Shown piece after piece: positions 14,480 to 20,600 of a stretch of DNA of 43,525 nucleotides. The notes beneath the pieces were generated by a model. The model saw only the letters and a list, made by a program, of their open reading frames with translations. It was not told the DNA's origin and searched no databases. How positions within the stretch are numbered: position 1 is the first letter of the stretch; each line of letters starts with the position of its first letter. The DNA comes from Escherichia coli (GTDB taxonomy: Bacteria; Pseudomonadota; Gammaproteobacteria; Enterobacterales; Enterobacteriaceae): the NCBI RefSeq assembly GCF_003334255.1, contig NZ_QOWU01000046.1, one strand, 5' to 3'. Both the position numbers and the translations under genes were made by a program.

Positions 14480-15433
14480 ATGACAATCAACGATTCGGCA
14501 ATTTCAGAACAGGGAATGTGTGAAGAAGAACAGGTCGCGCGGATCGCGTGGTTTTACTATCACGACGGGCTGACCCAGAGCGAGATCAGCGATCGTCTCG
14601 GCCTGACACGTTTGAAAGTGTCGCGATTGCTGGAGAAAGGGCATCAGTCCGGCATTATTCGCGTACAGATTAATTCTCGCTTTGAAGGCTGTCTGGAATA
14701 TGAAACTCAATTACGTCGTCAGTTTTCGCTGCAACATGTCCGGGTGATCCCTGGGCTTGCGGATGCTGATGTCGGTGGGCGACTGGGGATAGGCGCGGCG
14801 CATATGTTGATGAGTTTACTTCAACCACAACAGATGCTGGCGATTGGTTTTGGCGAGGCAACCATGAATACGCTGCAACGCTTAAGTGGTTTTATTTCGT
14901 CACAGCAAATTCGCCTGGTCACGCTCTCCGGTGGCGTCGGTTCTTATATGACGGGAATCGGGCAGCTTAACGCGGCGTGCAGTGTGAATATTATTCCGGC
15001 TCCGTTGCGGGCATCCTCCGCTGACATTGCCCGTACGCTAAAAAATGAAAATTGCGTCAAAGATGTTCTGTTAGCCGCGCAAGCAGCGGATGTGGCGATT
15101 GTCGGCATTGGTGCTGTGAGTCAACAGGACGATGCGACAATCATTCGCTCCGGTTATATCAGCCAGGGCGAACAGTTAATGATTGGCCGAAAAGGGGCGG
15201 TTGGCGACATTTTAGGCTACTTTTTTGATGCAAAAGGTGACGTTGTCACGAATATCAAAATACATAACGAACTGATTGGCTTACCTTTAAGCGCGCTGAA
15301 GACCATACCCGTCCGGGTTGGCGTGGCAGGGGGAGAAAATAAAGCCGAAGCAATTGCCGCTGCAATGAAAGGCGGTTATATCAACGCACTGGTTACCGAT
15401 CAGGACACAGCAGCGGCGATTTTACGTAGTTAA
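14480..15433 (+). CDS. lsrR: lsr operon repressor LsrR (SorC/DeoR family)
   Basis: 317-aa ORF with an N-terminal HTH and a sugar-phosphate-binding C-terminal domain. Confidence 0.9.
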
Positions 15434-15511: not shown

Positions 15512-17104
15512 ATGGCTCGACTCTTTACCCTTTCAGAATCAAAGTACTACCTGATGGCGCTGGATGCAGGCACCGGAAGTATTCGGGCTGTGATATTCGA
15601 CCTGGAAGGCAATCAAATAGCAGTGGGACAGGCGGAGTGGCGGCATCTGGCAGTACCGGACGTTCCTGGTTCTATGGAATTTGATCTCAACAAAAACTGG
15701 CAACTGGCGTGTGAGTGTATGCGCCAGGCGCTGCACAACGCCGGCATAGCCCCGGAGTATATCGCTGCCGTTTCGGCATGTTCGATGCGTGAAGGCATTG
15801 TTTTATATAATAATGAAGGAGCCCCGATCTGGGCCTGCGCCAATGTGGATGCCAGAGCGGCACGCGAAGTTAGCGAACTTAAAGAACTGCACAACAATAC
15901 CTTTGAAAACGAAGTTTATCGCGCGACCGGACAAACACTGGCTTTAAGTGCCATCCCCAGATTACTTTGGCTGGCGCACCATCGTTCCGATATTTACCGT
16001 CAGGCATCAACCATCACCATGATCAGCGACTGGCTGGCCTATATGCTCAGCGGCGAACTGGCGGTGGATCCCTCTAACGCTGGCACCACGGGACTTCTTG
16101 ATCTAACCACCCGTGACTGGAAACCTGCATTGCTGGATATGGCTGGCCTACGTGCCGATATTCTTTCTCCTGTCAAAGAAACCGGCACATTGCTGGGCGT
16201 GGTAAGTTCACAAGCGGCGGAACTCTGCGGTCTGAAGGCGGGCACTCCGGTGGTCGTTGGAGGAGGCGACGTGCAGCTTGGTTGCCTTGGGTTAGGCGTT
16301 GTGCGTCCGGCACAAACCGCGGTTCTTGGCGGCACATTCTGGCAGCAAGTTGTAAATTTAGCCGCGCCGGTGACAGACCCAGAAATGAACGTGCGCGTTA
16401 ATCCTCATGTTATTCCTGGCATGGTACAAGCTGAATCTATAAGCTTTTTTACCGGACTCACCATGCGCTGGTTCCGCGATGCTTTCTGTGCCGAAGAAAA
16501 ACTGATTGCCGAACGTTTAGGCATCGACACCTATACGCTGCTGGAAGAGATGGCCAGTCGGGTGCCGCCTGGGTCGTGGGGCGTAATGCCGATCTTCTCC
16601 GACAGAATGCGCTTTAAAACCTGGTATCACGCTGCGCCTTCCTTTATTAACTTGTCCATTGACCCGGATAAATGTAACAAAGCGACATTGTTCCGTGCGC
16701 TGGAAGAAAATGCGGCGATTGTATCAGCGTGTAACTTGCAGCAAATTGCTGATTTCTCGAATATTCATCCTTCATCGTTAGTCTTTGCAGGCGGAGGTTC
16801 AAAAGGGAAATTATGGAGTCAAATTCTCGCTGATGTCTCGGGATTACCCGTCAATATTCCGGTGGTCAAAGAAGCCACTGCATTAGGATGTGCCATTGCA
16901 GCTGGCGTCGGTGCCGGAATTTTTTCATCAATGGCAGAAACCGGAGAACGCCTGGTTCGCTGGGAACGGACGCACACACCAGACCCGGAAAAGCATGAAC
17001 TTTATCAGGATTCACGCGATAAGTGGCAGGCAGTTTATCAGGATCAGCTGGGGCTGGTTGATCATGGACTGACGACGTCGTTATGGAAAGCGCCTGGGTT
17101 ATAG
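15512..17104 (+). CDS. lsrK: Autoinducer-2 kinase LsrK (FGGY carbohydrate kinase family)
   Basis: 530-aa ORF ([30 protein letters not shown]...). Confidence 0.9.
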
Positions 17105-17112
17105 TTTCATTG

Positions 17113-17148
17113 ACAGCCACATCATGATGACCGTGGCTGTTAGTTTTT
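17113..17148 (+). terminator. Rho-independent terminator downstream of lsrK
   Basis: ACAGCCAC-(12-nt loop)-GTGGCTGT stem followed by TAGTTTTTG. Confidence 0.65.
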
Positions 17149-17634
17149 GAGTATAGTTATTCTTATTTCCCTTCTTTTAGAGCTGGCTTGTTAAAAGCCA
17201 GCTTGCAGATTCATCGTTCCATCACCAGTACTATATTCAAGGGAAAATTGCTATTTTTCTTAAAGCATTAAGCACAACCCTTATTTTATAGCGAATATTC
17301 CTAAAGACACTAATGGATGCAAAAGGGGTTTAATAAACTTCGATTTTTAGCAATTAGTGCTATTCTTTGTTAAATATGATGATGATAATTTTCCTATTGA
17401 AAGAAACAGTTTTCTTATTAAGCAACAATAACTCATAGTTCATATTTAAATAAAATAAGAACTATGCAATTTTTAATCTATCAATTCGAAAGCATTAGCA
17501 AATTAGCCAAATTGACACCTTCCCACCTCCAACTAACACTCAATACAGACCTCTGACAATTTAATAAGTTTCATTTTTAATGTCTGACGACTCATCTCTT
17601 TCGTGGCTGTATTGTTTGTATATGGAGCGTTTAT

Positions 17635-20600
17635 ATGAATAGAATCTATCGCGTGATATGGAATTGCACTCTACAGGTATTTCAGGCCTGCTCGGAATTA
17701 ACTCGCAGGGCAGGTAAAACATCGACGGTTAATTTGCGTAAATCCTCTGGACTGACAACGAAATTCAGTAGATTGACGCTGGGTGTTTTGCTGGCACTAA
17801 GCGGTTCAGCGTCTGGTGCAAGTCTGGAAGTTGATAATGATCAGATTACCAATATTGATACTGATGTTGCTTATGATGCCTACCTGGTTGGCTGGTATGG
17901 CACTGGAGTGCTTAATATTTTGGCTGGCGGTAATGCCTCCTTAACCACTATTACTACCAGCGTCATTGGCGCTAATGAGGACTCAGAGGGCACCGTTAAT
18001 GTTTTGGGTGGCACCTGGCGATTGTATGATAGCGGAAATAATGCAAGGCCTTTAAATGTGGGTCAATCCGGAACGGGGACGCTGAATATTAAACAGAAGG
18101 GTCACGTCGATGGAGGCTATTTAAGATTAGGTTCTTCGACAGGAGGCGTCGGGACGGTCAATGTTGAGGGAGAGGACTCTGTTCTGACGACCGAATTATT
18201 CGAAATAGGTAGCTATGGCACAGGTTCATTAAATATTACGGATAAGGGTTACGTCACGAGTTCAATCGTCGCCATTTTAGGCTATCAGGCGGGCAGTAAT
18301 GGCCAGGTTGTCGTTGAAAAGGGTGGCGAGTGGCTAATAAAAAATAATGATTCCTCAATTGAATTTCAAATTGGTAATCAAGGAACTGGGGAGGCGACTA
18401 TTCGCGAGGGGGGGTTGGTTACGGCTGAAAATACGATTATCGGTGGCAATGCCACCGGTATCGGAACCCTGAATGTGCAGGATCAAGACTCTGTCATCAC
18501 GGTACGCAGACTCTATAATGGATATTTCGGTAATGGCACAGTCAATATTTCCAATAATGGACTGATTAATAACAAAGAATATTCATTGGTGGGCGTTCAG
18601 GACGGTTCCCACGGTGTCGTCAACGTGACCGATAAAGGGCATTGGAATTTCCTCGGAACGGGCGAAGCTTTCCGCTATATCTATATCGGTGATGCTGGCG
18701 ACGGTGAACTTAATGTCTCGAGTGAAGGCAAAGTAGATTCGGGAATTATCACTGCGGGGATGAAAGAAACAGGCACAGGCAACATTACTGTTAAGGATAA
18801 GAACTCCGTTATCACTAATCTCGGAACTAATCTTGGTTATGACGGCCACGGCGAAATGAATATCAGTAATCAGGGGCTTGTTGTCAGCAACGGAGGAAGT
18901 TCACTCGGTTATGGAGAAACCGGCGTCGGGAATGTCAGCATCACCACGGGGGGAATGTGGGAGGTCAATAAGAATGTCTATACCACCATTGGTGTTGCGG
19001 GCGTCGGAAACCTCAATATTAGCGATGGCGGTAAGTTCGTATCGCAAAATATTACTTTTTTGGGCGATAAAGCAAGCGGTATCGGCACACTGAACCTGAT
19101 GGATGCGACATCATCGTTCGATACTGTGGGTATCAATGTCGGTAATTTTGGTAGCGGTATCGTAAATGTCAGTAATGGTGCCACCCTTAATTCAACGGGC
19201 TATGGATTTATCGGAGGAAATGCCTCCGGTAAGGGGATAGTTAATATTTCAACGGACAGTCTCTGGAATTTAAAGACATCATCTACTAACGCACAATTGC
19301 TACAGGTCGGTGTATTAGGCACGGGTGAACTGAATATTACCACCGGAGGTATAGTTAAAGCGCGTGATACACAGATAGCTCTCAATGACAAAAGTAAGGG
19401 CGACGTGAGGGTGGATGGGCAGAACTCTCTTCTTGAAACATTCAATATGTACGTAGGGACATCTGGTACGGGTACGTTAACCCTGACGAATAACGGTACG
19501 CTGAATGTCGAAGGTGGAGAAGTTTACTTAGGTGTTTTTGAGCCTGCTGTAGGAACGCTAAACATTGGTGCTGCTCACGGTGAGGCGGCGGCAGATGCCG
19601 GATTTATCACCAATGCGACGAAAGTGGAGTTTGGTCTTGGCGAAGGCGTTTTTGTCTTTAATCATACCAATAACAGTGATGCCGGCTACCAGGTCGATAT
19701 GCTGATTACAGGTGACGATAAAGACGGAAAAGTGATCCATGATGCAGGCCATACGGTGTTCAATGCAGGGAATACTTATAGCGGTAAAACGCTGGTCAAT
19801 GACGGCCTCCTGACCATTGCGTCTCATACGGCAGATGGGGTAACGGGCATGGGGTCGAGTGAAGTAACCATTGCAAACCCCGGTACGCTCGACATTCTCG
19901 CATCAACGAACAGTGCAGGAGATTACACGCTGACCAATGCGCTCAAAGGCGATGGCTTGATGCGAGTGCAGCTGTCATCCTCCGACAAGATGTTTGGCTT
20001 TACCCATGCAACAGGGACTGAATTCGCCGGTGTTGCCCAACTGAAAGACAGTACCTTCACTCTGGAACGCGACAACACCGCTGCGCTTACTCACGCGATG
20101 TTGCAGTCTGACAGTGAAAATACCACATCGGTAAAAGTTGGAGAGCAATCCATTGGTGGACTGGCCATGAATGGAGGTACCATCATTTTCGATACGGATA
20201 TTCCTGCTGCGACGCTCGCGGAGGGATATATCAGCGTCGATACGCTGGTTGTCGGCGCGGGTGACTACACCTGGAAAGGCCGTAACTATCAGGTAAACGG
20301 GACGGGCGACGTGCTTATCGACGTGCCTAAACCGTGGAATGATCCCATGGCGAATAACCCTCTGACGACGCTCAATTTGCTGGAACACGACGATAGCCAT
20401 GTCGGCGTTCAACTGGTGAAGGCGCAAACGGTTATTGGGTCGGGTGGCTCATTAACGTTACGTGATTTACAGGGCGACGAGGTGGAAGCGGACAAAACGT
20501 TACACATTGCGCAAAACGGAACGGTGGTCGCCGAGGGTGATTATGGATTCCGCCTCACGACCGCACCAGGTAATGGTTTGTACGTTAACTATGGGCTGAA

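Follow-up and report, generated by a model that had tools for sequence, protein, structure and literature searches.

In this study, the repeat array in the passenger of an Escherichia coli autotransporter was resolved into 22 tandem units. These are most probably diverged copies of the TIGR04393 repeat, each predicted to form one coil; together they make up the N-terminal 41% of the passenger of an ECSE_1600 family protein, would have been born by ancient duplication of ~312-bp blocks, and are now frozen in number. We put the probability of this reading as a whole at about 85%. The window is the whole stretch of DNA that was analysed (43,525 nucleotides), and all coordinates refer to it.

The autotransporter and its 22-unit array

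The window region corresponds to lsrRK–hipBA of E. coli. The autotransporter gene lies between lsrK (15512-17104) on one side and hipBA (hipA at about 23487-24866) on the other, and its DNA is 100% identical to E. coli genes annotated as ECSE_1600 family. The 1806-aa protein matched the NCBIfam model NF011422 with 4178.5 bits (cut-off 2335) over positions 1-1806 of 1806; judged by this full-length match above the cut-off, the product of 17635-23055 is a member of the catalogued ECSE_1600 family. ECSE_1600 of strain SE11 also has 1806 aa (PMC2608844), a length equal to that of the window protein. The K-12 copy, named YneO/YdeK/YdeU in the literature, is a frameshifted pseudogene; in RR1, a K-12 derivative, the reading frame is shifted by a G7-to-G8 change at window position 21589, whereas the window copy is intact. 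The features of the protein outside the array are as follows:

17635..23055, +, coding sequence of the ECSE_1600 family autotransporter, 1806 aa (open reading frame; NF011422; 100% DNA identity to annotated genes)
17635..17775, +, ESPR extended signal peptide, aa 1-47 (Pfam PF13018, E 1.5e-14)
17824..17904, +, degenerate N-terminal cap rung, aa 64-90, ...AYLVGWYGT (strands at model residues 10-31; motif by sequence reading)
19630..19668, +, transition motif FGLGEGVFVFNHT, aa 666-678, directly after the array (kept in distant homologues, A1 consensus)
19744..19818, +, aa 704-728, a weak PATR match beyond the array (Pfam PF12951, i-E 0.029, below significance)
21391..21477, +, PATR motif, aa 1253-1281 (Pfam PF12951, i-E 6.6e-5; TIGR02601 at aa 1253-1283)
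21628..21948, +, autochaperone domain AC_1, aa 1332-1438 (Pfam PF18883, E 4.9e-26)
22207..22986, +, autotransporter outer-membrane beta-barrel, aa 1525-1784 (Pfam PF03797, E 4.8e-42; TIGR01414, E 1.3e-121)

In a classical (type Va) autotransporter, a single polypeptide carries an N-terminal signal peptide, then the passenger and an autochaperone region, and a 12-stranded barrel at the C-terminus. The window protein has the domains of this type, with ESPR at aa 1-47, AC_1 at aa 1332-1438 and the barrel at aa 1525-1784; a Pertactin match (PF03212, aa 1335-1452, E 2.3e-10) overlaps AC_1. Pfam profile matches revealed no enzyme domain in the passenger, and no N-terminal protease domain was detected.

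The array is N-terminal and membrane-distal, and occupies about 41% of the passenger (aa 91-665 within roughly 55-1440). A preliminary description of this DNA had placed a degenerate tandem motif of about 20 units at 17890-19580 (aa 86-649). An array was indeed found at this site; it comprises 22 tandem units in 1725 bp, at 17905-19629 (aa 91-665), grouped as follows:

17905..18222, +, superrepeat 1, units 1-4, aa 91-196; unit starts at aa 91, 119, 148, 173
18223..18534, +, superrepeat 2, units 5-8, aa 197-300; unit starts at aa 197, 223, 252, 277
18535..18849, +, superrepeat 3, units 9-12, aa 301-405; unit starts at aa 301, 327, 357, 382
18850..19155, +, superrepeat 4, units 13-16, aa 406-507; unit starts at aa 406, 432, 458, 484
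19156..19470, +, superrepeat 5, units 17-20, aa 508-612; unit starts at aa 508, 534, 564, 589
19471..19629, +, units 21-22, aa 613-665; unit 22 is GTLNIGAAHGEAAADAG...

A unit HMM recovered exactly those 22 units and none past aa 665. The cap rung at aa 64-90 was not detected by the unit HMM; it ends with the strand-3/turn motif as in even units. The motif proposed earlier, G-[TVI]-G-x-[LV]-N-[IV]-x3-G-x-[VLW], fits the units well: a mean of 6.2 of its 8 specified positions were matched per unit, against 1.4 expected from composition. A chain of core motifs at 24-30-aa spacing reached 22 hits, whereas none of 2000 composition-preserving shuffles gave more than 6. Unit 22 (GTLNIGAAHGEAAADAG...) is a conserved array-terminating motif in other family members according to alignment A1, the consensus of which ends in ...GTLNIGxAxGxxAxxAG...FGxGxGxxxFNHT.

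Unit number and variation of the gene

The copies have diverged to 26-37% amino acid identity, the superrepeats share 40-49% nucleotide identity, and exact direct DNA repeats in the array reach 10 bp at most. Tandem Repeats Finder, run over 17000-23500, reported no array in the coding sequence and only a 9-bp, 2.3-copy repeat upstream. This blank is consistent with diverged copies, and the periodicity was therefore measured at the protein level; the nucleotide-level divergence noted in the preliminary description is thus confirmed.

In E. coli, the array is now evolutionarily frozen at 22 rungs. Of 5426 complete E. coli genomes, 4174 contain the array DNA. Sixty rows spread over the ranks were sampled from the complete genomes, and almost every undisrupted array among them was exactly 1725 bp long; the earlier suggestion that repeat number may differ between strains is not supported within E. 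coli. At 85-86% identity, orthologues still have exactly 1806 aa and are free of indels of at least 8 aa.

It is very improbable that the array is a variable-number repeat in which strain-to-strain copy change tunes the length of the surface protein. Many E. coli family proteins are shorter than 1806 aa, as such a repeat would predict, but clusters of 1806-aa proteins comprise 18868 and 5726 sequences, and deletion variants are mostly singletons. The 90 distinct in-frame deletions of 92-363 aa, which could be taken for copy changes, are scattered over aa 31-1715 rather than centred on the array. For those that fall within it, the unit position at which sequence is lost differs from that at which it resumes; being out of register with the units, they were rejected as unit losses. 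Distant family members gave 2 to 30 unit-HMM hits, which also speaks for a variable number, but a constant array length of 1725 bp was seen across the sampled genomes. With a blank Tandem Repeats Finder result, a longest exact repeat of 10 bp and this constant length, the array does not qualify as a VNTR or contingency array; recombination between units would lack an exact DNA repeat longer than 10 bp on which to act. Microhomology at the deletion junctions is near chance (median run of 3 nt, observed and control alike), and with equal medians it was rejected as the overall driver of deletions; runs of at least 7 nt occurred at 6.7% of the observed junctions and 0.7% of the controls. Two junctions were resolved at the DNA level, one with the 6-nt microhomology ACGCTG and the other without microhomology.

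An array of fixed unit number is the preferred reading, and the length variants of the gene consist of irregular deletions with no regard to unit boundaries, of IS insertions and of frameshifts in poly-G tracts. The gene was disrupted in about half of the E. coli genomes in a 30-row sample, which argues against an indispensable role. All single-base frameshifts examined (8 of 8) fall in poly-G tracts (G6-G8), two of which lie within the array and three downstream. The four queried tracts are:

18408..18414, +, G7 tract in the Gly-Gly turn of unit 7 (REGGLV); frameshift site elsewhere, exact G6 allele in 25 complete genomes
18948..18953, +, G6 tract (G7 in other lineages) in the Gly-Gly turn of unit 14 (TTGGMW); also a frameshift site elsewhere, exact G8 allele in 41 complete genomes
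21465..21472, +, G8 tract, aa 1277-1279 (VGGE); G9 frameshift alleles common, exact G9 in 433 complete genomes
21589..21595, +, G7 tract, aa 1319-1321 (PGG); RR1 frameshift site, exact G8 in 389 complete genomes

An exact frameshifted allele at one of these tracts was present in at least 888 of the 5426 complete genomes. Alignment spans of 82 and 83 nt, taken alone, suggest that the G8 tract at 21465 may be longer than G9 in some genomes. The number of poly-G tracts is not significantly enriched over Gly-Gly content and codon use (5 versus 2.4 ± 1.4 expected, P = 0.077). We consider it unlikely that the tracts are low-rate slippage switches turning the surface protein off and on in E. coli lineages, rather than sites of decay.

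Period, fold and family of the repeat

The units are 24-30 aa long, with a mean of 26.1 aa (about 78 bp). Autocorrelation of the protein gave a z of 3.1 at lag 26, weak signals at lags 49-52 and a strong signal at lags 104-105 (z about 5); that of the DNA gave a z of 2.5 at 78 bp, 3.5-3.7 at 312-315 bp and 5.7 at 621 bp. A period of 19-20 aa or 57-60 bp had been claimed for the array, and this claim has to be replaced by about 26 aa or 78 bp on the basis of autocorrelation and motif spacing. Protein autocorrelation at lags 19-20 had a z of about 0, the DNA had no signal at 57 bp (z 0.3) or 60 bp (z -1.0), and a motif chain at 18-21-aa spacing reached 2 only, the chance level. The claimed figures were also inconsistent with each other, since 20 units of 60 bp amount to 1200 bp against a span of 1691 bp.

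Above the single unit, two further levels were found. Unit tails alternate in the 22-unit alignment, and the resulting two-unit pattern is the 49-aa TIGR04393 repeat, a double unit that exists because odd and even rungs differ. Even rungs have in turn diverged into two kinds, one bearing Trp and the other D-S-V-x-T; the dominant period is therefore one of four units, giving superrepeats of about 104 aa (102-106 aa) in five and a half copies. Units of the same type are 29% identical, compared with 21% for units at odd lags.

Beta-helical passengers of autotransporters are described in textbooks, and the beta-helix proposed in the preliminary description is supported by the predicted structure of the array. 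An AF2 model of the array region, built on an 18-sequence alignment, was all-beta with a pLDDT of 91 and a pTM of 0.89; confidence was lower at units 21-22. The model has three strands in most units, with strands 2 and 3 fused in several. The closest structures in a Foldseek search were TibA, Ag43 (both at probability 1.0), pertactin and further right-handed beta-helix passengers, and the predicted three-faced fold is that of a beta-solenoid passenger. A PDB sequence search found no solved structure with sequence similarity to the array. Because three strands are predicted per unit, one unit is read as one coil, and the strand pattern together with the matched folds points to a right-handed helix. 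Each 24-30-aa unit would thus be one coil of a right-handed, three-sided parallel beta-helix, in which strand 1 would be G-x-[LV]-N-[IV]-x, followed by a short G-rich turn; strand 2 would be x-[VW]-x-x, and strand 3 x-x-[IV]-G, followed by a closing G-x-G turn of 4-6 residues. Conserved aliphatic residues probably stack in the core, and glycines may permit the tight corners. The rise of a beta-helix is usually 4.8 Angstrom per rung; 22 such rungs would form a rod of about 10.5 nm.

The repeats had been described as building the helix of the passenger, but they account for its N-terminal part of about 41% and not for the whole helix. A model of aa 601-1500, built on an alignment of 8 sequences that are 88-98% identical, had a pLDDT of 44.6 and was discarded; the PATR, Pertactin and AC_1 matches suggest that the helix may continue past aa 700.

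TIGR04393 (T5SS/PEP-CTERM-associated repeat) is an NCBIfam model of 49 positions. It matched the protein with 175.3 bits (cut-off 23, E 1.6e-52) in 9 stretches, so the array belongs to this repeat, a double unit of ~25-aa rungs, by multiple tandem stretches above the cut-off. The repeat family has 3358 cluster representatives at E up to 1e-3, and the mode of the unit spacing is 25 aa in 123 long representatives. The repeat is present in autotransporters and in proteins with PEP-CTERM-like C-terminal motifs; 52 of 118 distant relatives have a PEP-CTERM-like ending. Distant homologues share the double unit G-x-G-x-L-x-I-x-x-G-G-x-V ... G-S-x-W ... L-x-V-G with the array; unlike in typical TIGR04393 repeats, the copies here are more degenerate, and the even rungs occur in two subtypes.

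AIDA-I, TibA and Ag43 are self-associating autotransporters with rung repeats of 19-20 aa. That the present repeats are rungs of this type is scarcely credible. The predicted fold is nearest to TibA and Ag43, but the rung of about 26 aa (24-30 aa) has another consensus, and the 19-20-aa (57-60-bp) period is refuted by autocorrelation and motif spacing. The C-terminal third of the protein matches the AIDA-I model NF033176 with 355.2 bits, but the cut-off is 1200 and the match covers aa 1298-1805 only; the family models score below their cut-offs. The gene also has no adjoining glycosyltransferase gene: with lsrK upstream and hipB/hipA downstream, there is no adjacent autotransporter heptosyltransferase gene of the aah/tibC type. 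One source does label the K-12 gene "AIDA-I family autotransporter YneO" (PMC10782963).

TIGR04393 remains the preferred assignment; pertactin-type passengers and the PATR motif were compared as well. The window protein differs from pertactin-type passengers in that its repeat is recognisable in the sequence and no protease domain was detected. In that type (P.69 pertactin, Hap, Hbp and other SPATEs), the rungs are irregular and no repeat can be recognised in the sequence; an N-terminal protease domain is present in many of these passengers. PATR (PF12951), a short beta-strand motif rich in Gly, occurs in autotransporter passengers; the window protein shares it, but downstream of the array (aa 704-728, weak, and aa 1253-1281). 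The array is not a PATR array, because all PATR matches are downstream and none was found inside aa 91-665. The array is perhaps linked to the roughly 100-aa "A repeats" of Salmonella ShdA; the ShdA and MisL models scored below their cut-offs against the protein, with their best-scoring stretches C-terminal.

Unit identities of just 21-29% and a modest rigid-lag autocorrelation at 26 aa (z 3.1) might suggest that the periodicity is a side effect of the Gly/Thr/Asn/Val-rich composition with no true repeat, but this has next to no chance of being correct, as it is refuted by the shuffle tests (22 chained hits against at most 6 in 2000 shuffles) and opposed by the TIGR04393 E-value of 1.6e-52, the z of about 5 at lags 104-105, and the confident and regular AF2 model.

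Putative role and use of the unit map

By analogy with studied autotransporters, the protein would undergo Sec export via its ESPR signal peptide, and the passenger would cross the outer membrane via the C-terminal barrel. Folding would proceed from the autochaperone domain toward the N-terminus, and the array, on this N-terminus-last model, would emerge and stack last. Since the passenger carries no enzyme domain, the array would most likely serve as a scaffold that also provides the binding surface in a putative adhesin or aggregation factor. A literature search found no experimental study on the function of YneO/YdeK/YdeU, ECSE_1600 or TIGR04393; the one paper found on the gene derives the term "adhesin" from a Pfam pertactin motif (PMC2608844).

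Both the repeat type TIGR04393 and the family NF011422 were catalogued before. This study adds the rung length of about 26 aa, the two-level order of 49-aa double units and ~104-aa superrepeats, a confident predicted structure for a repeat family to which no solved structure could be linked by sequence, and evidence for a fixed number of 22 rungs in E. coli. It also indicates that the gene varies by irregular deletions, IS insertions and poly-G frameshifts, rather than by a change in unit number. These results provide a guide for expressing the intact protein, since the gene is dead in K-12 and many other strains, and the unit map is useful for designing in-register rung deletions.

The autotransporter and its locus

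The array of tandem rung repeats in the ECSE_1600 autotransporter is a known kind of feature, which the preliminary description recognised correctly, although its period was incorrect and its guess that strains vary found no support; the repeat type (TIGR04393) and the protein family (NF011422) are both already known. The protein is assigned to NF011422 ('ECSE_1600 family autotransporter', NCBIfam), scoring 4178.5 bits over the entire ORF length against a cut-off of 2335, and of 5426 complete E. coli genomes, 4364 carry genes so annotated with 95-100% DNA identity. On its domain profile, the protein belongs to the classical type Va autotransporters, and its passenger carries no enzyme domain.

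Locus (window ORF listing) and protein domains (Pfam, significant unless marked)
14480-15433, lsrR
15512-17104, lsrK
17635-23055, + strand, ECSE_1600 autotransporter CDS, 1806 aa (ORF and NF011422)
Downstream of the autotransporter ORF, hipB/hipA
aa 1-47, ESPR extended signal peptide
aa 704-728, second PATR match (weak)
aa 1253-1281, PATR motif
aa 1332-1452, AC_1 autochaperone/Pertactin region
aa 1525-1784, autotransporter barrel

The K-12 gene is listed as 'AIDA-I family autotransporter YneO', with the synonyms ydeK and ydeU (PMC10782963), and its copy in the K-12 derivative RR1 carries a frameshift annotation. An intact gene is reported for SE11 and HS; MG1655, E24377A and O157 Sakai have truncated copies, and the B2 strains CFT073, UTI89 and 536 lack it. 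An adhesin role was suggested solely from a Pfam pertactin motif (PMC2608844). This one paper discusses the gene, and a literature search found no functional study of it. The intergenic region upstream of the gene (17105-17634, 530 bp) is AT-rich and contains 2.3 copies of a 9-bp repeat, ATTAGCCAA, at 17494-17513. The hipA ORF (23487-24866) has 459 aa when read from an upstream ATG and 440 aa as called on related contigs; the longer version is a mechanical artefact of ORF listing and no real feature.

Repeat period and higher-order structure

Anchoring on the pattern G-x-[LVIMAT]-x-[VILMT] identified 22 units spanning aa 91-665, or window positions 17905-19629, very near the 17890-19580 proposed previously.

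Unit starts
aa 91, 119, 148, 173, 197, 223, 252, 277, 301, 327, 357: units 1-11
aa 382, 406, 432, 458, 484, 508, 534, 564, 589, 613, 640: units 12-22

The degenerate tandem motif of the preliminary description is real: its pattern was matched at a mean of 6.2 of 8 specified positions per unit (1.4 expected from composition), and chaining the motif at 24-30-aa spacing gave 22 matches, whereas the longest chain among 2000 shuffles had 6. An HMM made from the units detected exactly 22, a partly circular result, and none in aa 666-1806, which places the end of the array at aa 665. The period of 19-20 aa (57-60 bp) did not hold. Units are 24-30 aa long, with a mean of 26.1 aa or ~78 bp; protein autocorrelation was z ~0 at lags 19-20, 3.1 at lag 26, weak at 49-52 and ~5 at 104-105, and at 18-21-aa spacing the longest motif chain was 2, which is chance level. 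Autocorrelation of the DNA gave z values of 0.3 at 57 bp, -1.0 at 60 bp, 2.5 at 78 bp, 3.5-3.7 at 312-315 bp and 5.7 at 621 bp. The earlier figures were also mutually inconsistent, since 20 units of 60 bp make 1200 bp, compared with a stated span of 1691 bp.

In the 22-unit alignment, odd units end in G-x-x-x-G-x-x and even units in G-x-G-x; thus the double unit is ~50 aa, as in the 49-position TIGR04393 model. This NCBIfam model ('T5SS/PEP-CTERM-associated repeat') matched the protein in 9 stretches (E = 1.6e-52), and the array is assigned to it on this profile match. The even units are themselves of two types, Trp-bearing (GGEW, KGHW, GGMW, DSLW, GGTW) and D/N-S-V-x-T, so that the array consists of five superrepeats of four units (102-106 aa) plus two terminal units. 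Identity is 29% between units of the same type and 21% between units at odd lags; superrepeats are 26-37% identical at the protein level and 40-49% at the DNA level. A transition motif, formed by the last unit (GTLNIGAAHGEAAADAG...) together with the FGLGEGVFVFNHT that follows it, also ends such arrays in the alignment consensus of distant homologues.

Predicted fold and repeat family

AlphaFold2 was run on aa 55-700 with an 18-row alignment, comprising the query, two orthologues of 79% identity and fifteen homologue segments of 28-35% identity taken from the representative search. The model is all-beta (mean pLDDT 91.0, pTM 0.89), and a regular beta-helix is confidently predicted for the array. 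By DSSP, most units share one pattern: strand 1 (G-x-L-N-I-x) is followed by a 3-4-residue turn and by strand 2, which a short kink separates from strand 3; the latter has a terminal I/V-G and leads into a 4-6-residue turn. Strands 2 and 3 are fused in several units. From this strand pattern, we read one unit as one three-stranded coil. The closest PDB matches in Foldseek were Ag43 (4kh3, 7koh, 7kob, 7ko9) and TibA (4q1q), with probabilities of 0.97-1.0, followed by EspC, IgA1 protease, pertactin, Hap and Hbp; no solved structure in the PDB is related to the array in sequence. The beta-helical passenger of the preliminary description is thus supported for aa 55-700, but the repeats build only ~41% of the passenger, and modelling of aa 601-1500, for which the alignment was shallow, failed (pLDDT 44.6).

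As in beta-helices generally, aliphatic residues of the three strands would stack in the core and glycines would form the corners, and 22 rungs at ~4.8 Angstrom would make a rod of ~10.5 nm. Autotransporter passengers generally cross the outer membrane C-terminus first and fold outward from the autochaperone; the N-terminal array would therefore stack last and lie farthest from the membrane. The array probably works like the rung repeats of AIDA-I, TibA and Ag43, but as a separate family, with a rung of 26 aa instead of 19 aa. Membership in AIDA-I was rejected, as the AIDA-I model matches the C-terminal third alone, below its cut-off, and the locus has no neighbouring heptosyltransferase gene. 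A PATR array was likewise rejected.

The repeat matched 3358 cluster representatives (50% identity) at E <=1e-3 and 1431 at <=1e-10. Among 123 long representatives, 2-30 units were detected, with a modal spacing of 25 aa. A PEP-CTERM-like terminal motif, which is a sorting signal as opposed to an autotransporter barrel, was found in 52 of 118 distant long representatives, and many of the others have an aromatic C-terminal residue, as in autotransporter barrels. These endings fit the NCBIfam name of the repeat. The TIGR04393-type repeat looks like a general building block of rod-like surface proteins; in the representative search, proteins made of the ~25-aa rung repeat reach 3878 aa.

Array length, frameshifts and deletions

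Array DNA is present in 4174 complete E. coli genomes, and in 4011 of these a single segment covers at least 80% of it. Among 60 rows sampled across the ranking, undisrupted matches were nearly all exactly 1725 bp; the exceptions were IS insertions, 1-2-nt indels, one ~29-bp deletion and three truncations. Two clusters of 1806-aa proteins contain 18868 and 5726 member sequences, and orthologues of 85-86% identity, one from 'Enterobacteriaceae bacterium G50', have exactly 1806 aa without any indel of 8 aa or more. Within the E. coli sample, the suggestion that repeat number differs between strains thus found no support, and a variable-number repeat was rejected on this near-constant length and on deletions out of register with the units. 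The low recombinational instability also proposed was borne out, as exact direct repeats in the array DNA reach at most 10 bp.

The real instability of the gene lies in poly-G frameshifts and IS elements. Among 30 rows sampled across the ranking of whole-gene matches in complete E. coli genomes, about half were disrupted copies: of 24 matches with 100% coverage, 11 had the reference length of 5421 nt, one more had an in-frame 12-nt duplication and 12 were disrupted by frameshifts or IS elements; six further rows were partial. Several complete genomes have the gene broken by elements of the IS1, IS2 and IS3 families. Each of the eight single-base frameshifts examined, all from other complete E. 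coli genomes, lies inside a poly-G tract coding for Gly-Gly.

Poly-G tracts
18408-18414, G7, unit 7
18948-18953, G6 (G7 in other lineages), unit 14
21465-21472, G8
21589-21595, G7, lesion site in RR1 (K-12), G7 to G8
21667-21672, poly-G, Gly-Gly

Exact matches to 80-nt probes in the 5426 complete genomes, which give lower bounds and lump inheritance, recurrence and homopolymer sequencing error, revealed frameshifted alleles in at least 433 (G9 at 21465), 389 (G8 at 21589), 41 (G8 at 18948) and 25 (G6 at 18408) genomes. The whole window has six G/C runs of at least 6 nt, and the autotransporter CDS contains five of them; poly-G enrichment was not significant relative to Gly-Gly content and codon use (synonymous-codon shuffle, P = 0.077). 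Short duplications also occur: an 8-nt tandem duplication, AATCGGCG, at 21618 causes a frameshift in O157:H7 strain F7386, and an in-frame 12-nt duplication, ACTAATCTCGGA, at 18814 in strain YZ22PE244 adds TNLG to unit 12, beside an existing TNLGTNLG.

Shorter E. coli proteins are the products of sporadic illegitimate deletions. The best 120 protein matches included 90 different single in-frame deletions, which were 92-363 aa long, mostly seen once and spread over aa 31-1715; in-frame deletions alone are visible because only these give long proteins. Deletions confined to the array begin and end at differing positions of the unit alignment. Junction microhomology was on the whole at chance level, with 6 nt and 0-1 nt at the two junctions compared in DNA. 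The deletion of aa 953-1169, which shortens the protein to 1589 aa, is recurrent, with at least 24 contigs carrying it.
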